A DNA stretch of 64,000 bases from Patescibacteria group bacterium (GTDB lineage: Bacteria > Patescibacteriota > Microgenomatia > Levybacterales > UBA12049): the NCBI GenBank assembly GCA_038063415.1, contig JBBTVD010000006.1, forward strand, positions 9,948 to 73,947, in the 5' to 3' direction. Shown in pieces: positions 47,855 through 63,954 of this stretch. The notes under the pieces are model-generated. The model was given only the letters and a program-made list of their open reading frames with translations. It did not search any database and had not been told where the DNA came from. Positions within the stretch are counted from its first letter, which is position 1; each line of letters opens with the position of its first letter. The translations under genes and the position numbers were made by a program.

Positions 47855-49661
47855 GAGGACCTTTAATATCTTTCACCTTCAATTGGATCTTTGTCCGACC
47901 ATTCCACGTGTTTTCATCAAGTGAGTATGCTACATCAATCGTGTCACCAATTTTTAAGACACCCGCCATTTCCCCCATCTTAAAAGCAATTGCTTCAAAT
48001 GATTGTCCTTCTTGAGAAAGAACGAGCTTCAAATGATTTCCTTCTTTTCCGAGTACCCGCATCTCTTCAATCATGACTCCCCTGGTTGCAAAGACAGGTT
48101 CTGGGTTTCCCATGCCAAAAGGAGAAAGTTTCTGTAGCTTTTTGTAAAGACCTTTGGTTATCTCAAAAAAGGGCAACTCACAATCAATCTTGAGCACTCG
48201 GAAAAGTATCTCTTCGGTGAGTAAACCATCGGCTGATGTTTCAAGTGTTTCTTGTAAAAGGGTTAGCTTTTCGGTTTCAACAGAAAATCCCGCCGCCATA
48301 GGGTGCCCTCCAAGAGTGAGAAACATCTGCTCATATTGTCGGAGAAACTCGATGATATTGAATCCATGCACCGAACGAACCGAAGCTTTACTCTGTTTTT
48401 CTCTTTTGGAGATGACAATTGCTGGACGATAAAATTCTTCGACTAACCTCCCGGCAATAAGGCCAATAACTCCCTCTTGATAGCTATCATGTGAAACAAT
48501 AAGAAGTTTTTTCACTTCCGCTCCTTGTTCTCTTACTATTGCAACAGCATGTTCTGTGGAATCTTTCATGAGTGTTTGTCGTTCTCTATTAATAAGTTCA
48601 ATCTTGGCAGCAAGTTCGAGAGCTCGTTTTTTGTCTTTGGTACAGAGCAGTCGCAGGCTATCCATCCCACTTTGCAGCCTTCCAGCAGCATTCAGTCGAG
48701 GAGCAATCATATAACCGACATGATAGGTGGCAATCTCTTCCTTCTCGATTTTTGCTTGTTGAAAAAGAGCAATGAGGCCAGGCCGTTTGGTTTGTGATAG
48801 TTTGGAAAGGCCATGAGCGACAATCGCTCGGTTTGCACCAGTCAGTGGCACCAGATCGGCAATCGTCCCAAGAGTAGCAAGTTCAAGATGATTATCCTGA
48901 TTTTCCGTCATTCTGGCAAGCGAACTCCGATTAAATCGGGGGAAGTCGCGTCCAGAATCGATTCTGGAGTCCTCGCCTTTGCTCGTCCCCAGAATGACTG
49001 TTTCATTTTTTTCATTTTTAGTTTTTAGTTCCTGCGCTAGCAGGTAAGCTACCCCCGCTCCACAGAGTTTTGTGGTATGGACAATTGCCAAAGCATCAGG
49101 ATTTTTTTCTCCCGCGGCATGGTGGTCGGTAATAATGATCTCAATCCCCTGCTCGTTGGCAAACCTAACGGCTCTGTTTGCAACGATCCCATTATCAACG
49201 GTAATAATTAGTGCAATTGTTCCGAGTTCTTTTTGTAAATTCTCAATACCGATTTGCGACAATCCATATCCTTCTTCAATACGATGAGGAATATAAGGAG
49301 CTACTTTTGCTCCCATTGCGTATAATGTCTCCCAAAGAATGGCTGTCCCAGTAATGCCATCAACATCATAATCACCATAGACAACCATTTGCTCTTTGTT
49401 CTCAATTGCTTTTTGTAACCTTTTAAGCGTCTTTTTTAGATGCACTGCGTTTATCCCTACGCTTTGAGGAGTTACATCAGCTAGTTTTGGATTTAGAAAA
49501 ACTTCCCGATCTTTTTTTGTCGTTATATCTCGATTGGCAAGCAGCACATCTATCAAATCATCAACACTAAATCCCAGCTCTTTTTTCTTAAGTTTGCTAA
49601 TTATTTTCCACTGTTTCATACTATTTTTTAACTCCTTCGGCAAGCCATTCATAGATTGCAT
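47844..49661 (-). CDS. recJ: single-stranded-DNA-specific exonuclease RecJ
   Basis: 605 aa. DHH motifs VVYGDYDVDGITGTAIL and IITDHH, plus DHHA1 region. Contains an in-frame palindromic insert (see 48907-48998). Confidence 0.9.
   Translation of the reverse strand: MQSMNGLPKELKNSMKQWKIISKLKKKELGFSVDDLIDVLLANRDITTKKDREVFLNPKLADVTPQSVGINAVHLKKTLKRLQKAIENKEQMVVYGDYDVDGITGTAILWETLYAMGAKVAPYIPHRIEEGYGLSQIGIENLQKELGTIALIITVDNGIVANRAVRFANEQGIEIIITDHHAAGEKNPDALAIVHTTKLCGAGVAYLLAQELKTKNEKNETVILGTSKGEDSRIDSGRDFPRFNRSSLARMTENQDNHLELATLGTIADLVPLTGANRAIVAHGLSKLSQTKRPGLIALFQQAKIEKEEIATYHVGYMIAPRLNAAGRLQSGMDSLRLLCTKDKKRALELAAKIELINRERQTLMKDSTEHAVAIVREQGAEVKKLLIVSHDSYQEGVIGLIAGRLVEEFYRPAIVISKREKQSKASVRSVHGFNIIEFLRQYEQMFLTLGGHPMAAGFSVETEKLTLLQETLETSADGLLTEEILFRVLKIDCELPFFEITKGLYKKLQKLSPFGMGNPEPVFATRGVMIEEMRVLGKEGNHLKLVLSQEGQSFEAIAFKMGEMAGVLKIGDTIDVAYSLDENTWNGRTKIQLKVKDIKGPLAN
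48907..48998. repeat. in-frame palindromic repeat element copy (in recJ), 92 bp
   Basis: gtcattctgg ... tccagaatcgattctgga ... ccagaatgac. Terminal inverted repeats GTCATTCTGG/CCAGAATGAC and a central perfect palindrome CCAGAATCGATTCTGG. Encodes ...GEDSRIDSGRDFPRFNRSSLARMTE in RecJ. Has an extra ~31-bp internal segment relative to the other copies. Confidence 0.7.
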
Positions 49662-50364
49662 GCATAAGAGGCCACTGTTCCTTATTCATCAAAAGATGAT
49701 CGCCACCGGGGACGCCAACTAATTCTTTTCTTCCTTGTAACCTATTGAAGAAACTAAGCGATTGGATAGGTTTTACATCAGTATCTGCTTCTCCATACAC
49801 AACAAGTGTTGGAACCGAAATACCTTTACCTCGGAAATGTGTTAACCAATAAGAGATCTCACTCCAAGACTCGGGATGTGTTAACAGATACATACCAATC
49901 GCTAAAGACTGATTCCCATACATCTTTCTTGGATTAAAACTAAAAAAACCATTAATCGTTATTATCTTAGCTACCTTTTTATAGGTATTAGCTGCGATGG
50001 CAACGCTAATCCCTCCGAAACTTAATCCATATAAAATAATTTCGTCGTAGTCTTGAGAGAAATGATCAATAACCTTTCCGATATCTGAAACCCGCTGCTT
50101 CAAACTGACACGCTTTTTCCCTTCACTTTCACCATAGCCAGTAAAATCAAACGGAAAGACAGAAACGCCTATGCTATGATATGTTTCAAAAACATCAGTA
50201 ACACCCGGGAAGCCAAGTACTGGTTCAACTCCGTGACAAATAATGACGATTGTTTTTGAAGTATTTTTGTAGAGATAGCCTACCAGTTTCTCTTTTTTAT
50301 CATTAAGGATTATTACTCTCTCAGGCTTCATCTGATATACTATACCAGACATGCCAGAAGGCAA
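49621..50364 (-). CDS. alpha/beta-fold hydrolase
   Basis: 247 aa. GxSxG nucleophile elbow GLSFGG and HGV oxyanion-region motif. Start may be an internal Met because the longest ORF overlaps the divergent cca start. Confidence 0.7.
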   Translation of the reverse strand: MPSGMSGIVYQMKPERVIILNDKKEKLVGYLYKNTSKTIVIICHGVEPVLGFPGVTDVFETYHSIGVSVFPFDFTGYGESEGKKRVSLKQRVSDIGKVIDHFSQDYDEIILYGLSFGGISVAIAANTYKKVAKIITINGFFSFNPRKMYGNQSLAIGMYLLTHPESWSEISYWLTHFRGKGISVPTLVVYGEADTDVKPIQSLSFFNRLQGRKELVGVPGGDHLLMNKEQWPLMHAIYEWLAEGVKK

Positions 50365-51790
50365 ACAAGCTATGGAACAAAAGATCCCAAAGCATATTCT
50401 CGAACTTGAAAAAACATTTACGACAGCCGGCTTTACTATTTATTTTGTCGGAGGATGTGTACGGGATATGCTGGCACAGCGTCCAATAAAAGATTGGGAT
50501 TTGACAACCAATGCAACTCCTGAGCAAATGCTTGGGCTTTTTCCTGACGCCTTTTATGATAATCAATTTGGTACGGTTGGTATCCCTCTCAAAGATATCC
50601 CAGAAAGTGAACACCCAGAAGTTGTTGAAGTAACAACCTTCCGTACCGAAAAAGGCTATACAGATCGGCGCCATCCAGAGAAGGTTGAATGGGGAAAGAC
50701 CATTGAAGAAGACCTTTCCCGTCGTGACTTCACAATCAATGCGATGGCCCTACCTATTCGTCATTCTGGGGAGGAACAAAGTGACGACTCCAGAATCGAT
50801 CCTGGACAAGCCAGAATGACAGACATTATAGATCCCTATCATGGACAGGAGGATTTAAAAAATAAAGTAATTCGTGCCGTTGGTGATCCAAATTTGAGAT
50901 TTAAGGAAGATGCACTTCGACTCATGCGAGCAATTCGCTTTGCTGCACAATTAGGCTTTATCATTGAACCACAGACATTACAAGCAGTGAGTACCGATGC
51001 CCCACTTCTCTCTGAAATATCACAAGAAAGAGTACGTGATGAATTACTCAAAATTCTGGGGAGCGACTATCCCTATGAAGGAATTATGATGCTCAAAAAC
51101 ACAAGCCTTCTTCAATTTATTCTGCCGGAACTTATTGAAGGAGTTAGTATTTCTCAGAAGCGTCCAGGACGACATCATACCGAAGACGTCTTTACGCACA
51201 ACGTACTTTCTTTAAAATATTGTCCGGCAACAGATCCTGTTGTACGGTTTGCGACACTTATTCACGATGTTGGTAAACCTCGCGTCGCTGCGCAAGATGA
51301 GAATGGTTTAATCATTTTTTATAACCATGAAGTTGCCGGTGCACGAATGGCTTACAATATTGCACAACGGTTACGGCTGTCCAAAAAACAACGGGAGAAG
51401 ATAACCAAATTAATCAGATGGCATATGTTCACGGTTGATGAACATATCACAGATAGTGCAGTCAGACGGTTTATCAGACGAATTGGTGTCGAGAATGTCA
51501 AAGATATGATGGATCTACGAGTTGGAGACCGACTTGGTGGCGGGACGCAAACGGCAGAAAGTTGGCGATTGAAATTATTTAAAAAACGCCTTGAAGAACA
51601 GCTTGCTCCAGCTCCTTTCTCTATAAACAATCTAGCGATTGACGGCAATGATATCATGAAAGAATTACAAATGAAACCAGGCAAAGAGGTTGGTGAACTA
51701 TTACAAAAACTCTTTGCAGAAGTTGATGAAGATATGGAGAAAAATACGAGAGAATATTTACTCAAGAGAGTTAAGGAATTAATAGCTTAA
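50351..51790 (+). CDS. cca: CCA-adding tRNA nucleotidyltransferase with a C-terminal HD domain
   Basis: 479 aa. Pol-beta-like head YFVGGCVRDML...DWDLTT. HD-domain region (HD..KP). Contains an in-frame palindromic insert (50760-50820). Start may be the downstream Met (MEQKIPK). Confidence 0.85.
   Translation: MPEGKQAMEQKIPKHILELEKTFTTAGFTIYFVGGCVRDMLAQRPIKDWDLTTNATPEQMLGLFPDAFYDNQFGTVGIPLKDIPESEHPEVVEVTTFRTEKGYTDRRHPEKVEWGKTIEEDLSRRDFTINAMALPIRHSGEEQSDDSRIDPGQARMTDIIDPYHGQEDLKNKVIRAVGDPNLRFKEDALRLMRAIRFAAQLGFIIEPQTLQAVSTDAPLLSEISQERVRDELLKILGSDYPYEGIMMLKNTSLLQFILPELIEGVSISQKRPGRHHTEDVFTHNVLSLKYCPATDPVVRFATLIHDVGKPRVAAQDENGLIIFYNHEVAGARMAYNIAQRLRLSKKQREKITKLIRWHMFTVDEHITDSAVRRFIRRIGVENVKDMMDLRVGDRLGGGTQTAESWRLKLFKKRLEEQLAPAPFSINNLAIDGNDIMKELQMKPGKEVGELLQKLFAEVDEDMEKNTREYLLKRVKELIA
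50760..50820. repeat. in-frame palindromic repeat element copy (in cca), 61 bp
   Basis: gtcattctggggaggaacaaagtgacgactccagaatcgatcctggacaagccagaatgac, encoding RHSGEEQSDDSRIDPGQARMTD. Confidence 0.7.
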
Positions 51791-51804
51791 ACGGTAAGTA
51801 ACAC

Positions 51805-52092
51805 TTACTTCTCTTTCTTTCCAACAGCTCCATGCCCTGCATGGAAAAGACCGATGAGAAGTAGCCCTAAAGCAAATGATATAAATGAAATCATCGGATA
51901 CTGGCTCCAATCTACTCGTGTGAACAAAACTGCTGAAAGAATAAAACAAAACCATCCAGAAAGAAGATTTGGAATAGGACCATTACCAAAAGCCATAGGA
52001 TAGGATTCTTTTGTAATACCTTTTACAAAATGGGGTATAGCATTTCCCCCCAATAATCCAGAAAAAAAGCTTAAAAGAATTGCCGCGAACAT
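51805..52092 (-). CDS. small hydrophobic membrane protein (hypothetical)
   Basis: 95 aa, three predicted TM segments. No known motif. Confidence 0.45.
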   Translation of the reverse strand: MFAAILLSFFSGLLGGNAIPHFVKGITKESYPMAFGNGPIPNLLSGWFCFILSAVLFTRVDWSQYPMISFISFALGLLLIGLFHAGHGAVGKKEK

Positions 52093-52614: not shown

Positions 52615-52626
52615 CCTCTTTGTCGC

Positions 52627-52757: not shown

Positions 52758-54884
52758 ATGGTTCAAAGAAAACTAAAAGAAAAATGTGGCATTATCGGCG
52801 TGTATACGGCAAGTCAACACGCTTCCTCCTATGCCAAACAAGGATTGGCTGCATTGCAGCATCGGGGGCAAGAAAGTGCCGGGATGAGTATTCTTACTCC
52901 ACAAAAAAAGATCAAAACCTATACCGGCATGGGAATCATTCCGCATGTTTTAACAAATAGTGTCCTTAAAAAATTAGGGGAGAATGCTATGGCGATTGGA
53001 CATAACAGATACGCAACTTCTGGACATGGCGCATTAGGTAACGCTCATCCTATTGAAATTAAAAATAAAAAATATCAGGTTAGTATTGGACATAATGGTA
53101 ATATTCCAGAGCTTTCATCTATTCGGAAAAAACTAGGTGAGAAAAAAAGAACAATAAGCGATACGACACTTATGGCACGGCTGCTTATGCAGGAACGTCC
53201 TCAATTTACTTCATGGGAAGGAACTCTCATCAATACGCTTCCAGAATTTAAAGGGGCATATAATCTTGTTTTTTTGACAAACGATGGTTCACTCTTTGGT
53301 ATCCGTGATCCTTATGGCATACGACCCCTTTGTCTTGGGAAACTACCTGATGGTTGGGTCGTAGCTTCTGAATCGGTAGCACTTGACGCAATTGGCGCTC
53401 ACTTTGTTCGAGACATACATCCCGGAGAAATTATAAAAATAACACTCGATGGCAAAATCGAATCATACTTTTTTGGAGAACCCAAAAGGCAACAATTTTG
53501 TCTTTTTGAATTTATTTATTTTGCTCGACCGGATAGTTTTATTAATGGCAAAAGGGTTCGTACCACCCGAGAAGCAGCCGGAAAACTTCTTGGAAAAAGA
53601 CTTAAACAAAAAGATATCCGACCCGATGTCGTAGTACCAACTTTTGACTCAGGATATCCAGCCGCAAAAGGGGTAGCAGAAGAGCTTGGACTTCCGATAG
53701 TTGATGCAATCACGACAAGTCATTATATTGGGAGGACATTTATCCAACCAGGACAAGAAAATAGAGTTGCGGCTGTTAAGGGAAAACATAATATCGTCCC
53801 TGATGATATTATCGGCAAACATGTCGTCATTGTTGATGATTCCGCAGTACGATTAACAACGAGTACTGTTCTTGCACGAGAGTTTAAACAAGCAGGAGCA
53901 AAAAAAGTAACGATGGCATTTGCTAGCCCCCCAGTTATTGAACAATGTGATTTGGGCATTGATATGCGCAGTAAAAAATATCTTCCTGCCTCCCAATTTG
54001 AGAATCAACCATTTGAAGAAATTGAAAGGCAAGTTGCATCACTGATTAACGCGCATGATGTAGTATACCTACCAATTGAAGAAACAATTAAGGCAATTGG
54101 TGGTACGACAAAAGACTTTTATCACTACCCATTTGGCGGACCTCACCCTCTACGTTCAAACCAGGAAGCATTTGCAAAAAAAAGAGAAACGAAACAAGGC
54201 AAACCAAAAATCTTTGTTTTTATTTCCGGATCAGGAACAAATTTACAAGTAATTATTGATATGATTAACGAGAAAAAAATTAATGCCGAGATTGTCGCAG
54301 TTCTTTCAAATAAAGAGGATGCTTATGGACTCACCCGAGCAAAACAACACCATATTCCAACGATAATTCTTCCTTACTCAGAAAAACTAAACGATGCGAA
54401 AGCTCGACAAAGCTATGAAAAAAAGCTTATACAACAGGTGCAACTCTATAATCCTGATATTATTTTACTTTCTGGATGGACATTTATTCTGGGTGATACA
54501 TTTTTGCAAGCAATGCAAAAAACAGGTGTTCCTATCATTAACCATCACCCTGCACTTCTTTCGCAACATGCAGAAAGAGTAGTACAAACATCACGAGGAG
54601 CTATTCCAGTGATTCGCGGCCCGCATGGATTTAAAGACGCTTACGAAAAAAATCTACCGGTCTCAGGAATTACCGTCCATCAAGTATTACCAGGTAATAG
54701 CGTTGACATGGGACCAATTATTACCAAAGCAGAAGTACGAAGAAAAACAAATGATACTCCTGAAACGTTCGAAAAAAGGATCCGAGAAATGGAATATGTA
54801 TTACTTCCAACTGCTATAAAAAGAATTTTGCATGTAACCAATCACCATAATATTGATATTAGTAAAGGAGACTTTCCCTGGTAG
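52758..54884 (+). CDS. purF: fused amidophosphoribosyltransferase (PurF) + phosphoribosylglycinamide formyltransferase (PurN)
   Basis: 708 aa. N-terminal Ntn-glutaminase Cys after a short propeptide (KEKCGIIGVY). PRTase region. C-terminal PurN formyltransferase region (KIFVFISGSGTNLQVIID..., INHHPALL). Confidence 0.9.
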   Translation: MVQRKLKEKCGIIGVYTASQHASSYAKQGLAALQHRGQESAGMSILTPQKKIKTYTGMGIIPHVLTNSVLKKLGENAMAIGHNRYATSGHGALGNAHPIEIKNKKYQVSIGHNGNIPELSSIRKKLGEKKRTISDTTLMARLLMQERPQFTSWEGTLINTLPEFKGAYNLVFLTNDGSLFGIRDPYGIRPLCLGKLPDGWVVASESVALDAIGAHFVRDIHPGEIIKITLDGKIESYFFGEPKRQQFCLFEFIYFARPDSFINGKRVRTTREAAGKLLGKRLKQKDIRPDVVVPTFDSGYPAAKGVAEELGLPIVDAITTSHYIGRTFIQPGQENRVAAVKGKHNIVPDDIIGKHVVIVDDSAVRLTTSTVLAREFKQAGAKKVTMAFASPPVIEQCDLGIDMRSKKYLPASQFENQPFEEIERQVASLINAHDVVYLPIEETIKAIGGTTKDFYHYPFGGPHPLRSNQEAFAKKRETKQGKPKIFVFISGSGTNLQVIIDMINEKKINAEIVAVLSNKEDAYGLTRAKQHHIPTIILPYSEKLNDAKARQSYEKKLIQQVQLYNPDIILLSGWTFILGDTFLQAMQKTGVPIINHHPALLSQHAERVVQTSRGAIPVIRGPHGFKDAYEKNLPVSGITVHQVLPGNSVDMGPIITKAEVRRKTNDTPETFEKRIREMEYVLLPTAIKRILHVTNHHNIDISKGDFPW

Positions 54885-55022
54885 CAACGAACTATTTTAA
54901 TTTTTAGAAAGCGAGGAATATATTTTTTCGCAGTGATCAATAGTGATAATGTGGTTGAAGAATCTATCTTAAACTTTTTCGCGTGGATCACAAGAAAAAA
55001 TTTCATTCCGAGCAAATAACAT
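54885..55022 (+). promoter_or_regulatory. conserved ~115-nt leader upstream of purD-purS-purL (paralog of 59364-59505); candidate cis-regulatory element
   Basis: Shared blocks TAGAAAGYGAGGAA, TTTTTCGCAGTGATC, TTTTCGCGTGGATCACAAGAAAAA, TTTCRTTCCGARC. GTGATC/GATCAC could pair. One compensatory change in a small hairpin (TCA-ATAG-TGA vs TCG-ATAG-CGA). Confidence 0.5.
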
Positions 55023-58000
55023 ATGAAAAAAAAGAATAACATTTTGATTATTGGTTCAGGGGCACGAGAACATGCCTTGGGATGGAAATTTAAACAATCA
55101 CCAAGAATTGATAAGATATATTTTGCTCCAGGAACTGCTGGGACAGAACTTATTGGAAAAACTACCAATATAGCATTTTCTGATATTCCTTCACTAATTA
55201 CCTTTGCAAAAGAAAATGCGATAGATCTTACGGTCGCTGGACCTGATGATGCACTTGCAGCAGGAGTCGTAAATAGCTTTCAAGACAATGGGCTTAACAT
55301 TTTTGGACCAACCAAAGAAGCTGCTCAAATAGAATCGTCAAAAGCTTTTGCAAAAAAAATAATGCAAGAAGAAAACATACCAACTGCAACCTATCAAACA
55401 TTTACTTCATTTACCAAAGCAAAAAACTACCTGCAGAAGCAATCGCTCCCTATTGTTATCAAAGCCAGCGGACTTGCCCTTGGGAAAGGCGTGATCATCG
55501 CGCAAACAAAAGAAGCAGCAGAAAAAACACTTGAAGATATCCTCATTAAAAAGGTCTTTGGTGATGCGGGGAAAGAGGTCATTATTGAAGAGTTTTTGAT
55601 CGGTCCAGAAATTTCTATTCATGCATTTTCTGACGGAGAAAATGTGTCACTCTTCCCGGCAGCACGCGATCACAAGCCAATTTTTGAAGGTAATCATGGG
55701 CCAAACACAGGAGGCATGGGAACAATCGCTCCTCTTCCAGAAATAACGGACGAACAACTTGAAGAAATTAAAAAAACAATTGTCTTACCAATTATCCAAG
55801 GGCTGAAGAAACGTGGTATGCCTTTTGTGGGATGCCTTTATCCAGGATTAATCTTGACAAAAGAAGGCCCAAAAGTATTGGAGTTTAATGCTCGATTTGG
55901 CGACCCCGAAATGGAGTCCTATATGAGACTTCTTGAGACAGATATCCTTGATATCCTCATTGCTTGTACCGAAGGCAAATTAAATAAACAGAGAATTATT
56001 TGGTCGATTCAAGCTGCTTGCTGTATTGTCTTAGCTTCTGCGGGCTATCCTGTAACTTCCCATAAAGGTGATGTTATCAAAGGGTTAGAAAAAGTGGGAA
56101 AACAAAAAGATATTGTTGTCTTTCATTTTGCGACAAAAAAAGTACAGGGGGTAATGAGGACAAATGGTGGCCGAGTCCTTGGCGTTACCGCAGTTGGCAA
56201 AAACCTTGATGAGGCAGTTGATAAGGCCTATGCAGCCATTGGAAAAGATGGTATCCATTTTGCTGGGATGCAATATAGAAAAGATATTGGACGGATAAAA
56301 AAGAGTAAGATTATTGAGAGTGATGCAGGAGCGAAGCAATCTCTTCCAGAAAAGATAACAAGACTTGAGGTTTTTTCAAAAATCCCTGATACTCGGGCTG
56401 TTGTCAAAAAGAAAAAATTACAAGGGGTGAATGAAAAAATTAAAAAGGTGTCTCTTGCTGATGTGTATACCATAGATAAAGGCTTTTCAGAAAATGAGTT
56501 ACAAAGAATCGCAGAAACACTTTCTAATCCAACGACACAAAGCTATACTTTTTCACCAAACCAATCATTCAAAAAAAAGTCTTTTACGTGGGCTATTGAA
56601 ATAGGCTTCCTCCCTGGTGTTACCGATAATATTGCAACAACTGCAAAAGAAACAATTGCTGATTTACTCGATAAGCCATTTAATGAAGGAGAAAATATTC
56701 ATACATCTCAGCTTATTTTCCTTGAGGGAGATATAAACAAAAAAGAAGCAGAAGAAATTGCTACGATGCTGTATAACCCGCTAATTCAGAGAATGCATCT
56801 TAAAAGCTTTAAAGAGTATCAAAAAGATAATGGGATGGATATTATCGTTCCAAAAGTAAAACTTGAAAAAGAACCAGAGATAAGAGAAGTTAACCTTAGC
56901 GTCTCAGATGAAGAGCTTACCGTTATTGGGAAAAAAGGTATTGCAAACTCTGATGCAATCGGAGCAAGACGAGGACCACTAGCACTTGATCTTGTGTATA
57001 TGAAAATTATTCAAAAATATTTTAAAAAGCTTAAAAGAAACCCAACGGATATTGAACTTGAGTCCATTGCACAGACATGGTCGGAGCATTGTAAACATAC
57101 TATTTTTGCTGATCCTATTGACGAGATCAAAGAAGGATTATTTAAAAGGTATATCAAACAAGCTACTGAGGAAATTCGTAAGAAAAAAGGGAAACGTGAC
57201 TTTTGTGTCTCTGTCTTTACCGATAATTCAGGGGGCATCGCTTTTGATAACGAATATTTGATAACACATAAAGTAGAAACCCACAATAGTCCATCAGCAC
57301 TTGATCCTTTTGGGGGAGCAATTACAGGGATTGTGGGAGTCAATCGTGACGCGCTTGGTTTTGGTCTTGGAGCAAAACCCGTTGCAAATATGTACGGCTA
57401 TTGTCTTGCTGATCCACGAAAAGATATCCCTCTTTATAAAGGTAAAAATCAAACACAAAAAATGCTCTCATCCAGGCGGATTATGGATGGAGTTATTGAT
57501 GGCGTAAATGCTGGAGGTAACCAATCAGGGATTCCAACACCCCAAGGATTTATGTATTTTGATGAACGGTACCGCGGTAAGCCACTTGTTTTTGTCGGTA
57601 CCGTAGGTCTCATCCCACGTAAAATTCAAGGGAAGCTTTCGCATGTAAAAGAAGCACAACCCGGAGATTATATTGTCATGATTGGAGGAAGGGTCGGCAA
57701 AGATGGTATCCATGGCGCAACCTTTTCATCAGAAGCACTCGATAGTGGAAGTCCTGCAAGTGCGGTACAAATTGGTGACCCGATCACCCAGAAAAAACTC
57801 AGTGATGCCCTTGTCAAAGAAGCCCGAGACCAACTGCTCTATACAAGTATTACCGATAATGGCGCAGGAGGACTCTCTTGTTCTGTCTCTGAAATGGCCA
57901 AAGAATCAGGTGGTTGTCTGGTGGAGTTAGAAAAAATACCCCTGAAATATCCAGGACTTGATCCTTGGGAAATATGGATCTCCGAATCACAAGAGCGAAT

Positions 58001-59363
58001 GACCCTTGCCCTCCCTCCACAAAACTGGCAGATGTTTTCTGATCTGATGCAACGACGTGGCGTTGAAGCAACAGTCATTGGAACTTTCACAAAAAGCGGC
58101 AAATGTATTGTCACCTATCATGATAAAACTATCATGGATCTTGATCTTGCATTTTTACATGATGGGTTACCACAAAGACCCATGACAACAAGGAAACCCA
58201 AAAATGTCATTCTGGAGCGAAATGACAATGAAGCGATAGGATCTGTATCGAGAGATCCTATCAGTCGCTCTAGCTCCTTCCAGGATGACGGCAATAAAAT
58301 ATTGTTAAATATGCTCTCAAGACTCAATATCACCAGTTACGAATTTATTTCACAACAATATGATTCTATTGTTCAAGGAAGTGCAGTTCTTGGACCATTA
58401 CAAGGAAGAGGGAGAGTGAATGCCGATACAAGTGTTTTGAGACCAGTACTGACCTCACAAAAAGGTGTTATTCTTTCACAAGCATTATATCCTGCGTATA
58501 GTGACATTGATCCGTATGCAATGGCTGCAAGTACTATTGATACTGCTATTAGGAATGCTGTAGCAGCTGGAGCAAATCCTGATCAGCTAGCACTTCTTGA
58601 TAACTTCTGTTGGTGTAGCCCAGACGACCCAGAAAGACTTTGGCAACTAAAAGAGGCAGTAAAAGCCTGTTATGACTATGCCCTCGCCTATCAAACCCCA
58701 TTTGTTTCTGGTAAAGATAGTATGTTTAACAACTTCAATGGCTTTGATAAAAAAGGAAAGCTAATTAAAATAGCAATTCCACCAACGCTCCTTATATCTA
58801 CCTTTGGTGTAGTTGATGATATAACAAAAGTGGTATCCCTTGATAGCAAAAAAACAGGCGATCTTCTCTATATTTTAGGAGAGACATATGAAGAGCTCGG
58901 AGGATCAGAGTATTTTGCTTTACAGAATGCACAATCGCTGACTGTCCCACAGGTAAATGCGATAATTAATAGTAAACTTTACAAAACTCTTTATCAGGCA
59001 ATTCAAAAAAATCTTATTGCTTCCAGTACCAGTATTGGCAGAGGAGGACTTGCTGTCGCTGCGGCAAAAAAAGCTCTAGGAGGAATGCTTGGGCTAACGA
59101 TTGACTTACAAAAAATTCCTGGACAGCACACTCGAGATGATTTCGCACTGTACTCCGAAAGCCAAGGAAGAATTCTGATTACTGTTGCCAGGGAAAATAA
59201 AAACGCTTTTGAAGAAATAATACGAGGAAATACTTTTGCCAATATTGGTAAAATCACCAAAGATCCAGCAATAGAAATCACAGGTCTAAACGGAAAATCG
59301 ATTATAGAGATGTCACTCAAAAAAGCGCTCAAAGTATATAAGCAAACATTTAAAGATTACTAA
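55023..59363 (+). CDS. purL: fused phosphoribosylamine--glycine ligase (PurD) + PurS-like domains + FGAM synthase large subunit (PurL)
   Basis: 1446 aa. N-terminal PurD (ILIIGSGAREHALGWK, ATP-grasp). Middle PurS-like repeats. C-terminal small-type PurL (TWSEHCKHTIF, AIR-synthase-related domains). Confidence 0.9.
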   Translation: MKKKNNILIIGSGAREHALGWKFKQSPRIDKIYFAPGTAGTELIGKTTNIAFSDIPSLITFAKENAIDLTVAGPDDALAAGVVNSFQDNGLNIFGPTKEAAQIESSKAFAKKIMQEENIPTATYQTFTSFTKAKNYLQKQSLPIVIKASGLALGKGVIIAQTKEAAEKTLEDILIKKVFGDAGKEVIIEEFLIGPEISIHAFSDGENVSLFPAARDHKPIFEGNHGPNTGGMGTIAPLPEITDEQLEEIKKTIVLPIIQGLKKRGMPFVGCLYPGLILTKEGPKVLEFNARFGDPEMESYMRLLETDILDILIACTEGKLNKQRIIWSIQAACCIVLASAGYPVTSHKGDVIKGLEKVGKQKDIVVFHFATKKVQGVMRTNGGRVLGVTAVGKNLDEAVDKAYAAIGKDGIHFAGMQYRKDIGRIKKSKIIESDAGAKQSLPEKITRLEVFSKIPDTRAVVKKKKLQGVNEKIKKVSLADVYTIDKGFSENELQRIAETLSNPTTQSYTFSPNQSFKKKSFTWAIEIGFLPGVTDNIATTAKETIADLLDKPFNEGENIHTSQLIFLEGDINKKEAEEIATMLYNPLIQRMHLKSFKEYQKDNGMDIIVPKVKLEKEPEIREVNLSVSDEELTVIGKKGIANSDAIGARRGPLALDLVYMKIIQKYFKKLKRNPTDIELESIAQTWSEHCKHTIFADPIDEIKEGLFKRYIKQATEEIRKKKGKRDFCVSVFTDNSGGIAFDNEYLITHKVETHNSPSALDPFGGAITGIVGVNRDALGFGLGAKPVANMYGYCLADPRKDIPLYKGKNQTQKMLSSRRIMDGVIDGVNAGGNQSGIPTPQGFMYFDERYRGKPLVFVGTVGLIPRKIQGKLSHVKEAQPGDYIVMIGGRVGKDGIHGATFSSEALDSGSPASAVQIGDPITQKKLSDALVKEARDQLLYTSITDNGAGGLSCSVSEMAKESGGCLVELEKIPLKYPGLDPWEIWISESQERMTLALPPQNWQMFSDLMQRRGVEATVIGTFTKSGKCIVTYHDKTIMDLDLAFLHDGLPQRPMTTRKPKNVILERNDNEAIGSVSRDPISRSSSFQDDGNKILLNMLSRLNITSYEFISQQYDSIVQGSAVLGPLQGRGRVNADTSVLRPVLTSQKGVILSQALYPAYSDIDPYAMAASTIDTAIRNAVAAGANPDQLALLDNFCWCSPDDPERLWQLKEAVKACYDYALAYQTPFVSGKDSMFNNFNGFDKKGKLIKIAIPPTLLISTFGVVDDITKVVSLDSKKTGDLLYILGETYEELGGSEYFALQNAQSLTVPQVNAIINSKLYKTLYQAIQKNLIASSTSIGRGGLAVAAAKKALGGMLGLTIDLQKIPGQHTRDDFALYSESQGRILITVARENKNAFEEIIRGNTFANIGKITKDPAIEITGLNGKSIIEMSLKKALKVYKQTFKDY

Positions 59364-59505
59364 TATAAAAATGCTTGCATTATAGAAAGTGAGGAACAAA
59401 TTTTTCGCAGTGATCGATAGCGACGAAGAGTTGGAAAGAAATTATCTTTAACCATTTTCGCGTGGATCACAAGAAAAATTTCGTTCCGAACGATAATAAA
59501 TTTTT
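59364..59505 (+). promoter_or_regulatory. conserved leader upstream of purQ (paralog of 54885-55022); contains the palindrome CGTTCCGAACG
   Basis: Same conserved blocks as 54885-55022. cgttccgaacg is PurBox-like (CCGAAC). Confidence 0.5.
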
Positions 59506-60306
59506 ATGACAAAACCAAAAGCACTTATTTTTTCAGGATACGGACTGAACTGTGAAGAAGAAACCAAATATGGTTTTGAACTCGCTGGAGCAACAGCAGA
59601 TATCATCCATATCAACGATCTGATTGCGAACAAGAAACTACTTAACAACTATCAAATACTTGCTTTTGGTGGAGGATTTTCTTATGGAGATGATACAGGG
59701 GCTGGGAATGCCTTTGCCAATAAAACGCGTAATCACCTGTGGGAGACACTGAGTAATTTTATAGACAAGGATCATCTAGCTATTGGCATTTGTAACGGTT
59801 TTCAAATTATTGCAAATCTAGGACTTCTTCCAGCAATCAAAAATCAGTATGGAAAGAGACAAGCAGCCCTTGTCAATAATGAGTCGGCTCGCTATACGGT
59901 ACGATTTGTTGATCTCAAAGTTACCAATAAAACGCCTTGGCTTACGGGGATAAAAACGCTTTCGTTACCAGTTGCTCACGGTGAAGGCAAATTCTATACA
60001 ACAAAAGAAAACTTGATACTACTTAAAAAATATAAACAGATTGCCCTTACCTACTTCTCTGGAGAAGCCTGTGCATACCAAAACTATCCAGCAAATCCGA
60101 ATGGCTCACTTGCAGATATTGCCGGCATTACTGATCAAACAGGGAAAATTTTGGGATTGATGCCACATCCAGAACGAGCTCTCTTTTTTACCCAAATGCC
60201 AAACTGGCCACTACGAAAAGAAGAACTACTAAGGAAGAAAAAAGAATTGCCAATACAAGGATCTGGATTACAATTATTCAAAAATGCTGTACAATACTTT
60301 GGTTAG
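59506..60306 (+). CDS. purQ: FGAM synthase glutamine amidotransferase subunit
   Basis: 266 aa. GGFSYGD, GICNGFQ (catalytic Cys), AHGEG, MPHPER. Confidence 0.9.
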   Translation: MTKPKALIFSGYGLNCEEETKYGFELAGATADIIHINDLIANKKLLNNYQILAFGGGFSYGDDTGAGNAFANKTRNHLWETLSNFIDKDHLAIGICNGFQIIANLGLLPAIKNQYGKRQAALVNNESARYTVRFVDLKVTNKTPWLTGIKTLSLPVAHGEGKFYTTKENLILLKKYKQIALTYFSGEACAYQNYPANPNGSLADIAGITDQTGKILGLMPHPERALFFTQMPNWPLRKEELLRKKKELPIQGSGLQLFKNAVQYFG

Positions 60307-60312
60307 TCACTT

Positions 60313-61863
60313 ATGAAAAAATTTGCACTCATCAGCGTCTCAGATAAAACAGGTATTATAACTTTTGCAAAAGCATTAGTAGATTTAGGATATACGATCA
60401 TTTCAACTGGGGGAACAGCAAAAACTCTTGCGCAAAAAAATATCCCCCATACCCCAATTCAGGAAGTTACTGGTAACCCTGAAAGCTTTGATGGTCGAAT
60501 GAAAACCATTAGTTTTCAAATTGAATCAGGCATTTTATTTGATCGAACAAATCCCAACCATGTTGAAGAAGCAAAAAAACTGAAGATTAAACCAATAGAT
60601 ATCGTGGTATGCAATCTGTACCCTTTTGAAGAAACTATTAAGAAACAAAACGTTACCATGGATGAAGCAATTGAAAATATTGATGTAGGAGGTCCCACAA
60701 TGGTCAGGTCGGCAGCCAAGAACTATAAAAATGTCTTGGTCGTTGTCGAACCAAACGATTATAACCTGGTAATAAAAACCCTCAAAAATAAATCGACAGA
60801 AGAAACATTTCGGAGAGAACTTGCAGCAAAAGCATTTGGACACCTCTCCTTTTATGACGCGCAAATTGCTCAGTATCTACAGCTGGAAACCTTCCCCAAT
60901 GAAATTGTTCTGCCAGGAAGAAAATTACTCAATCTCCGGTACGGCGAAAATCCTCATCAGCAGGGAGCTGTTTATACGAGACCAAGTGTTACGACTCCAT
61001 TTAATGAGTTGACTAAACACTGGGGGAGAGATTTGTCACTTATTAACATCACCGATATTAATGCCGGACTTACCTCAGTACGGCTTTTTGGTGAACCAGC
61101 AGCAGCAGTAATCAAACACAATAGTCCCTCAGGGCTTGCTCTTGGAGAGACGATTGACGAAGCACTTACACAAGCAATTGTGGCAGATCCCGAATCAGCT
61201 TTTGGAGGTATTATTGTGCTCAATAAACCACTTGATTTGGCAACCGCAAAAATTGTCGGAGGATTTAAAGATGAACGACGAGGCAACATTGATATTATCG
61301 CGGCGCCAATCATTAAGAAGAATGCATTGGCTTTTTTGCAGAAGGTCAGAAAGACCATGGGGATTTATACCTTTGGTGAGATACCACGGGAAGAAGACCC
61401 TTGGAATCTTAAATGGATTGATGGCGGCTTTGTTCTCCAAACAGCAGATGTAGGTATCGCAGATTCATTTGGTAAATGGGAAATAGTGACCAAGAAAAAG
61501 CCAACAAAAAAACAACTGCTCCAGATGCAGATTGGTTGGAAATTTGTCAGTAGAATTCGTTCAAATACGATTCTGATTATGGATAAAAATCTGCCGATGA
61601 CCCGAGGCATTGGCTCAGGACAAACCTCTCGAATTCGCTCTACCAAAATTGCGCTTGAGCAAGCAGGAACAAAAACAAAAAGTGGCATTCTTGTGAGCGA
61701 TAGCTTCTTCCCCTTTCCTGATAGTGTTGAATTAGCCGCTAAACATGGTATTACCGCAATTGTCCAGCAAGGTGGTTCTATTAATGATACACTCTCAATT
61801 GAAGCAGCCGACAAAGCAGGCATTGCAATGGTCTTTACCCATCGTAGGGCGTTCTGGCACTAA
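60313..61863 (+). CDS. purH: bifunctional AICAR transformylase / IMP cyclohydrolase
   Basis: 516 aa. N-terminal MGS-like domain (ALISVSDKTGI...ISTGGTAKTL) and C-terminal AICARFT domain. Confidence 0.9.
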   Translation: MKKFALISVSDKTGIITFAKALVDLGYTIISTGGTAKTLAQKNIPHTPIQEVTGNPESFDGRMKTISFQIESGILFDRTNPNHVEEAKKLKIKPIDIVVCNLYPFEETIKKQNVTMDEAIENIDVGGPTMVRSAAKNYKNVLVVVEPNDYNLVIKTLKNKSTEETFRRELAAKAFGHLSFYDAQIAQYLQLETFPNEIVLPGRKLLNLRYGENPHQQGAVYTRPSVTTPFNELTKHWGRDLSLINITDINAGLTSVRLFGEPAAAVIKHNSPSGLALGETIDEALTQAIVADPESAFGGIIVLNKPLDLATAKIVGGFKDERRGNIDIIAAPIIKKNALAFLQKVRKTMGIYTFGEIPREEDPWNLKWIDGGFVLQTADVGIADSFGKWEIVTKKKPTKKQLLQMQIGWKFVSRIRSNTILIMDKNLPMTRGIGSGQTSRIRSTKIALEQAGTKTKSGILVSDSFFPFPDSVELAAKHGITAIVQQGGSINDTLSIEAADKAGIAMVFTHRRAFWH

Positions 61864-61867
61864 AATT

Positions 61868-62506
61868 ATGGATAAAAATATATGTACTATTTATATAGTC
61901 AGACATGGTGAGTCTGAAGCAAACCTTGCAGACGTGCGTGGAGCTGATACCAAATTAACCAAAACCGGCAAAAAACAAGTACAAGAATTTGCACAAAAAC
62001 ATAAGCATATTCATTTTGATGCCATTTTTTCATCTCCCCTAATTAGAGCGCAAGAAACAGCAACGATTATTGCTGAAGAAAGGAAACTCGAGATTCTCAC
62101 AAAAGAAGCCCTACGGGAAAGATTCTCAGGAGAGCTTGATGGAAAAAAGTATGAAGAGATAAAAGAAGAACTAACGAAGTATAATACTCAAAGAAAAGAA
62201 CTTCCCTATGAACAAGCAAAATCACTTGCTCCTGCACAAGGATACGAGAGTGACGAAATGATTATGTCACGTTTCATTACCGCGCTTAGAGAAATTGGTG
62301 TTGCCTATCCTGGCAAAAGAGTACTTGTTGCAGGTCACTGGGGGCTTATGCGTACCTTTCTTGTCCATACAGGATACAAGACTTTTAAAGAGCTTATTGG
62401 GTATAAATTTAACAACCTCGCATCGATTATTATTCAAACAGATGGCGTAGATTTTTTTATTATGGAAGTAAATGGACTCGAAAAGAATCCTAAGTACATG
62501 GTATGA
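61868..62506 (+). CDS. histidine phosphatase family (phosphoglycerate-mutase-like) protein
   Basis: Start at MDKNICTIYIVRHGESEANL (RHG motif). The upstream part of the longer ORF overlaps purH and is rejected. Confidence 0.7.
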   Translation: MDKNICTIYIVRHGESEANLADVRGADTKLTKTGKKQVQEFAQKHKHIHFDAIFSSPLIRAQETATIIAEERKLEILTKEALRERFSGELDGKKYEEIKEELTKYNTQRKELPYEQAKSLAPAQGYESDEMIMSRFITALREIGVAYPGKRVLVAGHWGLMRTFLVHTGYKTFKELIGYKFNNLASIIIQTDGVDFFIMEVNGLEKNPKYMV

Positions 62507-63954
62507 GCAATCTTTTTTCATCTTATCAATCAACATTTTCCTGGCGATATGGTTCAAAACCCATGCGAGAAATTTTTAGTGAAGAAAATAAATATAAACT
62601 TTGGAGAAAAATTTGGGTTGCACTCGCAATGGCACAATATGATGCAGGACTTATTACCAAAAAAGAACTCACTGATCTGAAGAATAACCAGGAGAATATT
62701 GACATCAATCAAATTCTTGAACATGAAAAAAAGACACGACATGACGTTGTTGCAGCGATTAAAGAATTTGCGGCAAAAGCAACAGATGGTGGTGGCAAGA
62801 TTCACCTCGGGGCAACCAGCATGGATATTGTCGATAATACTGATGCGATCAGGACACAACAGGCATTACACATCGTTGAGGAGAAAATTCTAGCAATTCT
62901 TGCAATCCTTACCGAAAAAATTGAACAATATGCGGATCATGTCTGCATGGGATATACCCATCTCCAACCAGCAGAACCAACAACAGTCGGGTATCGATTA
63001 AGTGTGTATGCTCAAGATCTGTTGACAGATTATCACTTCCTGCAATTTGTTAAAAAAGAAATCAAAGCAAAAGGGATGAAAGGAGCCGTCGGAACGGCAG
63101 CAAGCTATACGGCAGTACTCGATCGTCATTCTGGGGAGCAGAGCGACTCCAGAATCGATTCTGGTCAAGCCAGAATGACAGCCATGGAAATGGAACAAAA
63201 CGTTATGAACCAATTGGGTATTGAACCCGCAATTATTAGCACACAAGTTTCTCCTCGAAAATATGATTATTTAGTACTGACACTGCTTGCCAGTATCTCC
63301 TCAACGTTTGCTAAGTTTGCCGGAGATTTGCGATTACTCCAGTCACCTAGCATTGGGGAATGGGCCGAGCCATTTGGCAAAAATCAAGTTGGCTCAAGTG
63401 CTATGCCTTTTAAACGAAATCCTATCAATGCTGAAAAAATTTGTTCACTTGCTCGTTATGTGGCAGCACTACCTACGGTTGCACTTGAAAATGCTACCCT
63501 TTCATATCTCGAGCGAACACTTGATGATTCAGCCAATAAACGAATTGTCATGCCAGAGGCATTCCTTGCAACAGACGAGATATTACAAGTTGGAGAAAAA
63601 CTGCTTTCGGGTCTGGTCATTAATGAAAAGAAAATTGCTTTTAACCTTGCCCAATATGCTCCTTTTGCAGCAACAGAAGCAATCCTTATGGAAAGCGTCA
63701 AACAAGGGGCAAGCCGTCAAGACATGCATGAAACACTTCGGGATATTTCTATGAAAGCATGGGGAGAGGTGCAAGAAGGCAAACCAAATCCTATGGAAAA
63801 ACTTTTAAGGGAAAATCAATCCATTCTGAAATATCTTTCGAAAGAACACATTATTTCACTGATTGAAGTAAAGCATCATATTGGTAATGCTCCAGAACGA
63901 GCAAAAAAATTAGTAAGGAATATTGAAAAATTAAAAAAAGGAAGTAAACTATAA
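62503..63954 (+). CDS. purB: adenylosuccinate lyase
   Basis: 483 aa. Fumarate-lyase signature GSSAMPFKRNP. Contains an in-frame palindromic insert (63125-63179). Confidence 0.9.
   Translation: MSNLFSSYQSTFSWRYGSKPMREIFSEENKYKLWRKIWVALAMAQYDAGLITKKELTDLKNNQENIDINQILEHEKKTRHDVVAAIKEFAAKATDGGGKIHLGATSMDIVDNTDAIRTQQALHIVEEKILAILAILTEKIEQYADHVCMGYTHLQPAEPTTVGYRLSVYAQDLLTDYHFLQFVKKEIKAKGMKGAVGTAASYTAVLDRHSGEQSDSRIDSGQARMTAMEMEQNVMNQLGIEPAIISTQVSPRKYDYLVLTLLASISSTFAKFAGDLRLLQSPSIGEWAEPFGKNQVGSSAMPFKRNPINAEKICSLARYVAALPTVALENATLSYLERTLDDSANKRIVMPEAFLATDEILQVGEKLLSGLVINEKKIAFNLAQYAPFAATEAILMESVKQGASRQDMHETLRDISMKAWGEVQEGKPNPMEKLLRENQSILKYLSKEHIISLIEVKHHIGNAPERAKKLVRNIEKLKKGSKL
63125..63179. repeat. 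in-frame palindromic repeat element copy (in purB), 55 bp
   Basis: gtcattctggggagcagagcgactccagaatcgattctggtcaagccagaatgac, encoding RHSGEQSDSRIDSGQARMTA. Confidence 0.7.

Follow-up and report, generated by a model that had tools for sequence, protein, structure and literature searches.

The Rickettsia palindromic elements, RPE-1 to RPE-10, are roughly 100-150 bp long (Ogata et al. 2000, summarised in PMC10969869). REP and REPIN elements are mobilised by RAYT transposases (PMC5581495 for RAYTs). Bacterial MITEs that fuse genes in frame include Coxiella QMITE1, intragenic ERIC, and the Anabaena MITEs (PMC5896051, PMC10969869), and coding palindromes have been described in the mitochondrial genes of Nematomorpha (PMC6649704). 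No published description of the CPR repeat family reported here was found in a literature search.

The source genome is that of a Microgenomates-type CPR bacterium (Patescibacteria) from Hainich groundwater. The whole stretch of DNA analyzed (64 kb, hereafter the window) carries four in-frame hairpin elements, three of type-1 and one of type-2. The elements and their host genes are as follows.

47844-49661, minus strand: host gene recJ, 605 aa, with Pfam DHH, DHHA1, and RecJ_OB domains
48907-48998, minus strand: type-1 element, long form, 92 nt, inside recJ, encoding RecJ residues 222-252 (VILGTSKGEDSRIDSGRDFPRFNRSSLARMT)
50351-51790, plus strand: host gene cca, 479 aa, with Pfam PolyA_pol head, RNA-binding, and HD domains
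50760-50820, plus strand: type-1 element, 61 nt, inside cca, encoding residues 137-157 (RHSGEEQSDDSRIDPGQARMT)
55023-59363, plus strand: host gene, a purD-purL fusion, 1446 aa, with GARS and FGAM synthase II domains (Pfam)
58206-58289, plus strand: type-2 element, 84 nt, inside the purD-purL fusion gene, encoding residues 1062-1089 (VILERNDNEAIGSVSRDPISRSSSFQDD)
62503-63954, plus strand: host gene purB, adenylosuccinate lyase (Pfam); its database copy P0001 begins at Met21 (62563)
63125-63179, plus strand: type-1 element, minimal form, 55 nt, inside purB, encoding residues 208-226 (RHSGEQSDSRIDSGQARMT)

The three type-1 copies lie where the original prediction had placed them and have the inverted ends it reported, which are exact over 10 nt (GTCATTCTGG / CCAGAATGAC) in all three. 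Its count of three missed the divergent type-2 copy in purD-purL; neither the window nor the adjoining 10 kb on its right contained a fifth copy. The central 16-mer CCAGAATCGATTCTGG, which had been described as a perfect palindrome throughout, is perfect in the recJ and purB copies, whereas the central box of the cca copy has one mismatch (GATCCTGG). At two or fewer mismatches, this 16-mer has three matches against a chance expectation of 0.01. On the gene strand, the recJ element reads GTCATTCTGG, a 21-nt module, CCAGAATC directly followed by GATTCTGG, a 34-nt second module, and CCAGAATGAC. The second module contains the hairpin CCGATTTAATCGG and replaces the 5-nt linker ACAAG; it is the hairpin-forming extra segment noticed earlier, although its length is 34 nt and not the ~31 bp given then. 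The purB element together with its flanking C and A amounts to 57 nt, or 19 codons. The type-2 copy is bounded by GTCATTCTGG / CCAGGATGAC, and its interior palindrome (GATAGGATCT...AGATCCTATC) is unlike the type-1 interior; it can be aligned with type-2 copies from Curtissbacteria and other MAGs. As had been anticipated from their palindromes, the elements fold better than shuffled sequence: the recJ element reaches -41.3 kcal/mol as RNA (z -4.6; z -4.4 as DNA), and the type-2 copy has z scores of -3.8 as RNA and -3.0 as DNA. The sequences of the window elements recur in three independent assemblies, and the elements are therefore not an assembly artefact.

All host ORFs are open across their elements, with zero stops. 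The three type-1 copies share one orientation relative to the host gene, as had been claimed. The claim of a common frame held for the center (SRID) and the 3' end (ARMT) but not for the 5' end of the recJ copy, which reads VILG and not RHSG owing to a first module of 21 nt instead of 14 or 20 nt. The type-2 copy is read as VILE...FQDD, in a frame different from that of the type-1 copies. The Pfam identities of the type-1 hosts are RecJ, a CCA/poly(A) polymerase-type nucleotidyltransferase, and adenylosuccinate lyase. Alignment with orthologs had been proposed earlier as a check; against solved structures, each type-1 insert falls in a gap. RecJ residues 213-255 are unaligned with the solved RecJ structure (8y30), the Cca insert is a 19-residue gap relative to the Bacillus CCA-adding enzyme (1miv) between the RRDFTINA motif and IIDP, and the PurB insert is a gap relative to human ADSL (5nx8) and is missing from the majority of CPR PurB orthologs. 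In the AlphaFold model of PurB, residues 210-221 form a coil with pLDDT <50 between the helices 200-208 and 227-238. The PurL type-2 insert is in a variable inter-domain linker, where alignment to 3viu is poor. Judging from these alignments and the predicted model, the PurB, Cca, and RecJ inserts are genuine insertions in loops, with a surface loop compatible with the fold.

The four window elements are members of an extensive family of repeats that occurs widely in CPR genomes. Scanning species-representative genomes gave at least 118 loci with a search pattern that demanded perfect ends, so this census is biased to such copies. Among the matches listed, at least 83 hairpins have a common modular build with four boxes, and every named host is a CPR bacterium. 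The build runs from a flanking pyrimidine through GTCATTCTGG, a module, CCAGAATC, a loop, GATTCTGG, a second module, and CCAGAATGAC to a flanking purine. The element can be described as an inverted doublet of the unit GTC-ATTCTGG-(variable module)-CCAGAAT-C, in which the seven-base box occurs four times. Single units fold by themselves, and the doublet can fold, as DNA or RNA, into one long nested hairpin or two side-by-side hairpins. At locus L127, the doublet consists of two different units; in another case, a related element, whose ends are GTCATTGCGAGG...CCTCGCAATGAC, holds an element nested in its loop. The end variants are paired with base pairing kept (CTGG/CCAG, CTGA/TCAG, and GCGAG/CTCGC), and the mini-hairpin has some compensatory change, with one varying pair. 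The same ends recur in members of the family from many CPR candidate phyla (class-level groups). Among the matches listed, a genome has between a few and about ten copies with exact ends, which is low for a REP or MITE family. Subfamilies are lineage-specific, such as the CGAAAG modules in one Magasanikbacteria MAG and the modules shared in JAHJQJ01 and PFLI01. Four species (L034, L065, L089, and L105) have an identical 55-mer, in unrelated genes. A local, non-mobile origin, in which replication errors or template switching form palindromes at fragile loops, might be considered since the same loops are struck repeatedly and, in one DNA ligase ortholog, a 7-nt tandem repeat lies in frame at the site, suggestive of an unstable region. 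Local errors, however, cannot yield either this 55-mer or well over 80 copies that have at least 30 specific bases in common in varied genomic contexts, and we regard such an origin as hardly credible.

In the census of related genomes, a check also proposed with the original prediction, about 40% of the listed copies are in frame in housekeeping genes and the remainder are intergenic; 34 of the 83 listed copies are in frame within long ORFs, against an ORF coverage of 87% at those loci. The claim that a palindromic repeat family sits in frame in unrelated housekeeping genes thus extends from the window hosts to about 34 housekeeping genes in other CPR genomes, among the matches listed, including those for aminoacyl-tRNA synthetases, UvrD, DNA ligase, PolA, and GMP synthase. 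Forward orientation was found in 25 of 32 intragenic listed copies versus 43% expected (p = 1e-4). The preferred readings are found in 21 listed copies (7.6 expected), and the aromatic SFW frame in 1 of 34 (7.7 expected). The preferred reading is the most hydrophilic one (GRAVY -1.67). Selection for translatable insertions, one of two explanations offered originally, is supported, at the level of sequence patterns, by this bias of orientation and frame toward the most hydrophilic reading.

The other explanation, that several enzymes recruited a functional peptide module, for example an interaction or localisation tag, found no support. The peptide HSGE.SDSRIDSGQARMT does recur in many proteins. 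Nevertheless, frames vary among hosts, with HSG, VIL, or SFW at the 5' end and RMT or QND at the 3' end, so that the same nucleotides also give VILGT..TPESDSGQARMT, ..QND, and SFW.., and the reverse orientation is used too. Because the frames differ between copies, the element is not a peptide module. Moreover, intergenic copies are the majority, the PurB insert is predicted as low-confidence coil, and orthologs work without the insert. We consider a functional peptide exceedingly improbable.

Only one of about 36 intragenic copies among the matches listed is out of frame (L086), and it is placed exactly at a frame change in a DUF2298 gene. This position, together with a 10-bp terminal stem that would juxtapose the flanks, could suggest that the element is missing from the mRNA or protein, through intron-like removal or ribosome skipping as in the mitochondrial "byp" elements and T4 gene 60. 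Such a process predicts free frame and stops; instead, about 35 of 36 listed intragenic copies are free of stops and keep the frame, and the most hydrophilic reading is favored. In addition, exact end-to-end excision (92, 61, and 55 nt; 84 nt for type-2) would put three of the four window genes out of frame. The retention of frame in nearly every intragenic copy speaks for read-through translation and against loss of the element from the mRNA, which we regard as very unlikely.

The linker of DNA ligase illustrates the proposed turnover of these elements. In different Daviesbacteria, this single linker carries a type-1, type-2, or GCGAG-type element, a CTGA chimera, or the in-frame 7-nt tandem repeat, and four different subfamilies occupy it. 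Among the matches listed, the closest relative (82% identical) bears a different subfamily at the linker. In L034 and L065, from two species, the element occupies an orthologous codon of the ligase linker and is identical at 55 of 55 nt, whereas the flanks are 63% identical and their codons are identical at only 45% of the positions with a conserved amino acid. This identity probably reflects either youth or constraint of the element, and it could be due to purifying selection at the nucleotide level for a function. The family might accordingly be a functional nucleic-acid motif under selection, either the binding site of a CPR protein (four ATTCTGG/CCAGAAT half-sites) or an mRNA structure affecting stability, processing, or translation pace. 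The boxes are constant regardless of the reading frame, the ends vary as matched pairs, and the orientation is biased relative to transcription, all of which such a motif would explain, as it would the compensatory change in the mini-hairpin. On the other hand, covariation is weak, with a single varying pair, and positions are not conserved in orthologs, as seen in PurB. Close relatives bear unrelated subfamilies at the ligase site, or a simple tandem repeat in their place, copies are scattered in both orientations over unrelated genes and intergenic DNA, and the L086 copy disrupts the frame of its gene. Rfam 15 likewise gave no family match: at the gathering score, the whole window contained one tRNA only, and the matches from an E-value search of 48700-51000, where the recJ and cca copies lie, were all at chance level and outside these two elements. 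On balance, selection for a motif appears unlikely as the explanation.

We infer the insertion junctions and the mobility of the family from sequence. The base preceding the element is a pyrimidine at 157 of 166 ends among the matches listed (Y/element/R junction), and target-site duplication is absent, direct repeats of at least 2 nt being not above chance in the 83 listed copies. Divided by three, the lengths of in-frame copies leave every possible remainder; insertion must therefore be imprecise, or indels occurred afterwards. In ~0.9 Mb of loci around the elements, we found no transposase or other mobilising enzyme, no full-length parent element, and no long end pair enclosing a transposase. 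A tblastn search of 8-kb windows around the elements with an approximate IS200 TnpA query, which is an insensitive test, gave no match and no RAYT/Y1 transposase.

Here, we propose, with a probability of roughly 0.7, that the elements are a non-autonomous, selfish, REPIN/MITE-like hairpin family that spreads within and between CPR genomes and is translated as a surface loop. Insertion would occur between a pyrimidine and a purine without target-site duplication, which points to a hairpin- or ssDNA-type mechanism (REP/REPIN, IS200/IS605-like) and not to DDE cut-and-paste. A putative ssDNA intermediate and a mobilising enzyme supplied in trans would be involved. Genomes of this kind are ~87% coding, and many insertions would therefore land in genes. 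Those that survive there would preserve the frame, be free of stop codons, occupy a surface loop or linker that tolerates them, and code for a disordered, hydrophilic peptide. Ribosomes probably read through them, as their pattern suggests, so that RecJ, Cca, PurB, and PurD-PurL would each gain a loop of 19-31 residues without a function of its own. Tolerant sites may be repeatedly struck or overwritten by different subfamilies. A more tentative and rather doubtful proposal is that the GTCAT...ATGAC hairpins are a CPR-wide mobile class moved by a putative hairpin- or ssDNA-specific recombinase that targets or overwrites resident copies at the conserved ends, the linkers being permanent "landing pads" with swapped subfamilies. 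It would explain the four subfamilies at one ligase codon, the identical 55-mer despite flanks of 63% identity, and the nested copies.

The proposed selfish hairpin family resembles RPEs in behavior, as originally predicted. Both are small palindromic repeats of reduced-genome bacteria, in frame in unrelated housekeeping genes and also intergenic, and read as an extra surface segment in loop positions (translation being presumed here). The RPE host is Rickettsia (Alphaproteobacteria) and not CPR, and the elements are 55-92 nt here versus roughly 100-150 bp, a comparison made by description. Furthermore, the CPR element has a four-box double-hairpin build with exact 10-nt inverted ends, its family spans many candidate phyla rather than one genus, and different subfamilies recurrently occupy the same protein linker. 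With REP/REPIN elements it shares inverted doublets of a short hairpin unit with a fixed start (GTAG in REP, GTC here), the lack of target-site duplication, ssDNA hairpin folding, and lineage-specific subfamilies; REPs, however, are extragenic with hundreds of copies, whereas the CPR element is ~40% intragenic with few copies per genome. Like MITEs, it is small and multicopy, has terminal inverted repeats, encodes no transposase, and makes in-frame ORF fusions (occasional in MITEs), but classical MITEs have target-site duplications and a related full-length IS, neither of which was found in the loci examined. The Nematomorpha palindromes are also inverted repeats within translated coding sequence (as is probable for the CPR element), but they are long local repeats in organelle genes without a dispersed family with shared ends. 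Integron attC sites have R''/L''...L'/R' boxes and form cassette arrays beside an integrase. The CPR element resembles them only in its two-stem build with a variable loop and was rejected as an attC site: its ends are GTCAT...ATGAC and not RYYYAAC...GTTRRRY, and it occurs as dispersed singletons in genes without arrays.

The family accounts for hitherto unexplained insertions in CPR housekeeping proteins. Annotators and phylogeneticists should be cautious, as these loops are non-homologous protein sequence, and the element is usable as a sequence tag to track CPR lineages. That different subfamilies have repeatedly settled in single linkers points to an as yet undescribed mobilisation or replacement mechanism worth isolating; if the "landing pad" proposal were true, the elements would move by a novel mechanism and would steadily supply the proteins of very small genomes with inserted loops. 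So far, palindromic repeats lying in frame in essential genes have been regarded mostly as a Rickettsia curiosity, but a distinct modular family in many CPR lineages suggests that they may arise more generally once hairpin repeats enter genomes that are small and dense in genes.

Hairpin elements sharing terminal motifs were found at four positions in the window, all of them inside coding sequences:

48907-48998, minus strand: type-1 copy in recJ (RecJ residues 222-252)
50760-50820, plus strand: type-1 copy in cca (Cca residues 137-157)
58206-58289, plus strand: type-2 copy in the purD-purL fusion gene (55023-59363, plus strand), with the ends GTCATTCTGG / CCAGGATGAC
63125-63179, plus strand: type-1 copy in purB (PurB residues 208-226)

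The three type-1 copies, which the original prediction had placed at these coordinates, all have the exact ends GTCATTCTGG ... CCAGAATGAC. The central 16-mer CCAGAATCGATTCTGG matches three times in the window, as compared with 0.01 matches expected by chance; it had been described as a perfect palindrome in all three copies, which holds for recJ and purB, whereas the cca copy has one mismatch. Pfam assigned the host genes to RecJ, a class-II CCA/poly(A) polymerase-type enzyme, and adenylosuccinate lyase, as had been proposed, and their ORFs all remain open straight across the element. A single reading frame for the three copies was only partly borne out. In 3/3 copies, the center gives SRID and the 3' end ARMT, but the 5' end of the recJ copy gives VILG instead of RHSG, its first module being 21 nt long rather than 14 or 20 nt. 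The fourth copy, detected by a scan for the end motifs, has another interior palindrome and another frame than the type-1 copies, and reads VILE...FQDD. All four copies folded better than shuffled controls both as RNA (z -2.2 to -4.6) and as DNA (z -1.7 to -4.4), the cca copy being the weakest. No further boxes or ends of the element were found elsewhere in the window, the first 48 kb being devoid of them.

The host genome is that of a Microgenomates-type CPR bacterium. The database copy of the window PurB (P0001) begins at Met21, and its nearest named relatives are Patescibacteria and Roizmanbacteria proteins with 63-71% identity. Contigs from Hainich groundwater (well H14) and an independent Logan assembly contain an identical PurB and identical elements; therefore, the inserts are not assembly artefacts. 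Comparison with orthologs supports the view that the segments are insertions. In an alignment of 17 CPR orthologs, PurB proteins mostly have 4-5 residues where the window PurB has 19, and the inserted segments of PurB, Cca, and RecJ fall in gaps when aligned with solved structures. In Cca, the insert separates the RRDFTINA motif from IIDP, and in RecJ it falls between two aligned blocks, leaving query residues 213-255 unaligned. In the AlphaFold model of PurB (pTM 0.83), residues 209-226 are predicted to form a coil, with pLDDT below 50 at 210-221, flanked by predicted helices at 200-208 and 227-238. The purL copy is located in a variable interdomain linker, where the alignment to 3viu is unreliable; this segment was counted as an element because of its similarity to type-2 copies elsewhere.

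Several other features of the window were recorded. The G+C content rises from 31-37% (1-36000) to 39-42% (36000-64000) at about 36 kb, and the four hairpin elements all lie within the higher-GC part. Segments 6733-8638 and 35075-36645 are paralogous (73-75% nucleotide identity) and span the start of a small membrane-like ORF and a gene of about 440 aa. Unusual purine-gene fusions are present: purF+purN (708 aa; 52758-54884), purD+purL (1446 aa; 55023-59363), and, just to the right of the window in locus L121 (11397-12899), purE+purC (500 aa). A second AIRS/AIRS_C gene lies near them. Both purD-purL and a GATase_5 (purQ-like) gene are preceded by a leader of about 120 nt (54885-55022 and 59364-59505), with 84% identity between the two sites, in which the motif TTTTCGC(A)GTGATC / TTTTCGCGTGGATCAC is present twice. 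No matching Rfam family was found for the leader, which may act as an operator of the purine regulon or as an undescribed riboswitch.

The family was collected by scanning one genome per species with the pattern GTCATTCTGG-N30-60-CCAGAATGAC, which gave at least 118 loci. Among the matches listed, window copies included, 83 of 129 hairpins share the build Y | GTCATTCTGG - module A - CCAGAATC - loop (2-35 nt) - GATTCTGG - module B - CCAGAATGAC | R. The modules are of few types (GGAGCGAAGCGACT, TAAGCGAAGCGCAT, GGACGA...GAGGACT, or a minimal CTTGT/ACAAG), and the larger ones frequently have a perfect hairpin of their own. In this build, the unit GTC-ATTCTGG-module-CCAGAAT-C is present as an inverted doublet. 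The element can fold either as nested or as two tandem hairpins; the tandem arrangement is favored because the chimeric copy in locus L127 joins two different units. Slight compensatory change in the mini-hairpin GCGAAGC, with four double changes in one pair, gives weak support to the structure. No target-site duplication was found at the 83 copies among the matches listed, and a pyrimidine lies just outside the element in 157 of their 166 ends. End variants (CTGA/TCAG and CCTGG/CCAGG) retain the core GTCAT...ATGAC. The same termini are found in a sister family of palindromic elements of about 150 bp with the ends GTCATTGCGAGG...CCTCGCAATGAC. One Gottesmanbacteria genome has a type-1 copy within the loop of a sister element, and such composites, about 170 bp with short flanks, are repeated (640-811 and 6017-6187 in locus L045; 6845-6977 in locus L008). 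In a MAG labeled Saccharibacteria (locus L106, 2074-3859), several GTCATTCTGA / TCAGAATGAC ends occur within 1.8 kb next to an in-frame type-1-like copy and may be a cluster of the CTGA/TCAG variant.

Copies were regarded as intragenic when a stop-free frame extended for at least 40 codons on each side. Among the matches listed, 34 of 83 family copies are intragenic, and the others are intergenic or at gene ends. Compared with the ORF coverage of the same loci (87%), the copies are therefore depleted in genes relative to random placement; the intragenic share is nonetheless far above that known for ordinary REP or MITE families. The host genes include those for UvrD (2), Ile/Val-type class-I aminoacyl-tRNA synthetases (2), ArgRS (2), PheRS beta, GMP synthase, ATP-dependent DNA ligase (2), DNA polymerase A, prepilin peptidase (2), glycosyltransferases, FemAB, O-antigen ligase, an EamA transporter, and DUF2298. 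The sole intragenic copy that breaks the frame among the matches listed is an 85-nt element in a Gottesmanbacteria DUF2298 membrane-protein gene (locus L086, JACPZF010000031.1, 3104-3188). The frame switches exactly at this element, profile positions 1-344 falling in the first ORF and 439-488 in the following one, and a second element within this gene, at 3866-3930, is in frame. The frame change could reflect a pseudogene, a sequencing indel, or a recoding event. Locus L069 was considered as a second split gene and rejected, as it has a C-terminal in-frame copy beside a separate Rieske gene.

Depending on the host, the same nucleotides at the 5' end are read as HSG.., VIL.., or SFW.., and those at the 3' end as ..RMT or ..QND. 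The conserved object is therefore the DNA and not the peptide, and the earlier suggestion of a peptide module with its own function is not supported. The other suggestion, selection for translatable insertions, agrees with the biases in orientation and frame. With all stop-free orientations and frames taken as equally likely, the forward orientation is overrepresented among intragenic copies (25/32, p = 1e-4), the aromatic SFW frame is avoided (1/34, 7.7 expected, p = 0.003), and the two forward RMT readings are favored (21, 7.6 expected, p = 9e-7). Of the six readings, the favored one, RHSGERSDSRIDSGQARMT, has the greatest hydrophilicity (GRAVY -1.67). Such a bias marks a survival filter acting on translated inserts. 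It also speaks against excision of the element from the mRNA, since both the frame and the stop codons would then be free. The end-to-end lengths of in-frame copies fall in all three modulo-3 classes, indicating either imprecise insertion or subsequent indels.

The same sites appear to be used repeatedly. The PurB loop of another MAG (locus L119) contains a different subtype, which lacks 2 nt in its 5' end and whose junction lies 1 nt off that of the window PurB, and the loop in a third lineage (locus L120) contains yet another palindrome. The clearest case is the ATP-dependent DNA ligase of Daviesbacteria. The ligases of loci L034 and L065 are 68% identical in protein, with about 63% identity in the flanking DNA and identical codons at 33 of 74 conserved residues, and have the same 55-mer at the same codon (55/55 nt identical). 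Among 120 orthologs, the linker is occupied by pristine type-1, type-2 (L124), the GCGAG family (L126), a CTGA chimera (L127), or an in-frame 7-nt tandem repeat (L125), with many more variants beyond these five; L124 is the closest relative at 82%, yet has type-2 there. The L126 occupant is a sister-family element in frame, read RHCEE...LAMT. The "empty" linker of L125 has, after GDLG, in-frame (GTTCAAA) x 4, which encodes SSKFKVQSSKL. The linker appears to be hypervariable. Simple vertical descent followed by decay does not fit this pattern; a better fit is a tolerant linker whose resident element is repeatedly inserted into or replaced. Selection at the nucleotide level may also lie behind the pattern.

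All named hosts of family copies among the matches listed are CPR: Levy-, Roizman-, Davies-, Curtiss-, Gottesman-, Blackburn-, Magasanik-, Berkel-, and Howlettbacteria. Subfamilies are particular to individual genomes, indicating amplification within lineages. Some MAGs with type-1 copies are labeled Gammaproteobacteria; they were not taken to indicate spread beyond CPR, because their genes are CPR-like. The L065 ligase is 68% identical to a Daviesbacteria ligase, and the CAZAIV01 PurB groups with CPR PurB, so the labels look wrong. Other pattern matches (Adhaeribacter, Clostridium, Enorma, and others) were not accepted as family members, having only the 10-nt ends in common, and may be coincidental. 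Fecal Eubacteriales and Lachnospiraceae MAGs (loci L003, L011, L028, L032, L039, L064, L066, L085, L095, L103, L113, L116, and L117) have many intergenic 52-69-nt hairpins with the 10-nt ends of the element, and the interior of these hairpins, AGCGAAGCGATAGAATCTC, agrees with that of the CPR type-2 subfamily. Their frequent location at contig ends suggests a high-copy repeat. The contigs carry ordinary genes, and no transposase was found near these hairpins, which are candidates for cross-phylum sharing with CPR. Searches gave no exact pattern match in viral contigs, no blastn match in a plasmid collection, and no Rfam family for the elements. A 30-aa window stretch had no match at E <= 0.001 among 1.84 billion representatives, a comparison of low statistical power with so short a query, and a concatenated peptide of 40 aa gave no word-index candidates.

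Here, we propose that the elements would move via a hairpin or ssDNA intermediate with an enzyme acting in trans, that the inserts would be translated by ribosome read-through, and that elements would be turned over at their landing sites. No parent element or transposase was found in the loci examined. A tblastn search of the loci for IS200 TnpA, an insensitive test, gave noise only, and long pairs of unpaired ends enclosed no convincing cargo. Two inverted copies in L045 enclose a 5.3-kb segment with nucleotide-metabolism genes and no transposase.

The Rickettsia-like behavior anticipated for the element was supported by in-frame genic copies in unrelated host genes. In behavior, it is the same phenomenon as that of Rickettsia palindromic elements (RPE; PMC10969869), whereas the lineage differs. 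The doublet build is nearest to that of REPIN; the element differs from REP, however, in not being extragenic or of high copy number, and from MITE in the lack of a target-site duplication. No earlier description of the motif, or of palindromic, MITE, or in-frame insertions in CPR/Patescibacteria, was found in open-access full text and bioRxiv, which returned only primers and unrelated papers. The family is of clear interest for the fields of CPR genomes and mobile DNA, and this interest would be greater if the site replacement reflects a new enzyme.
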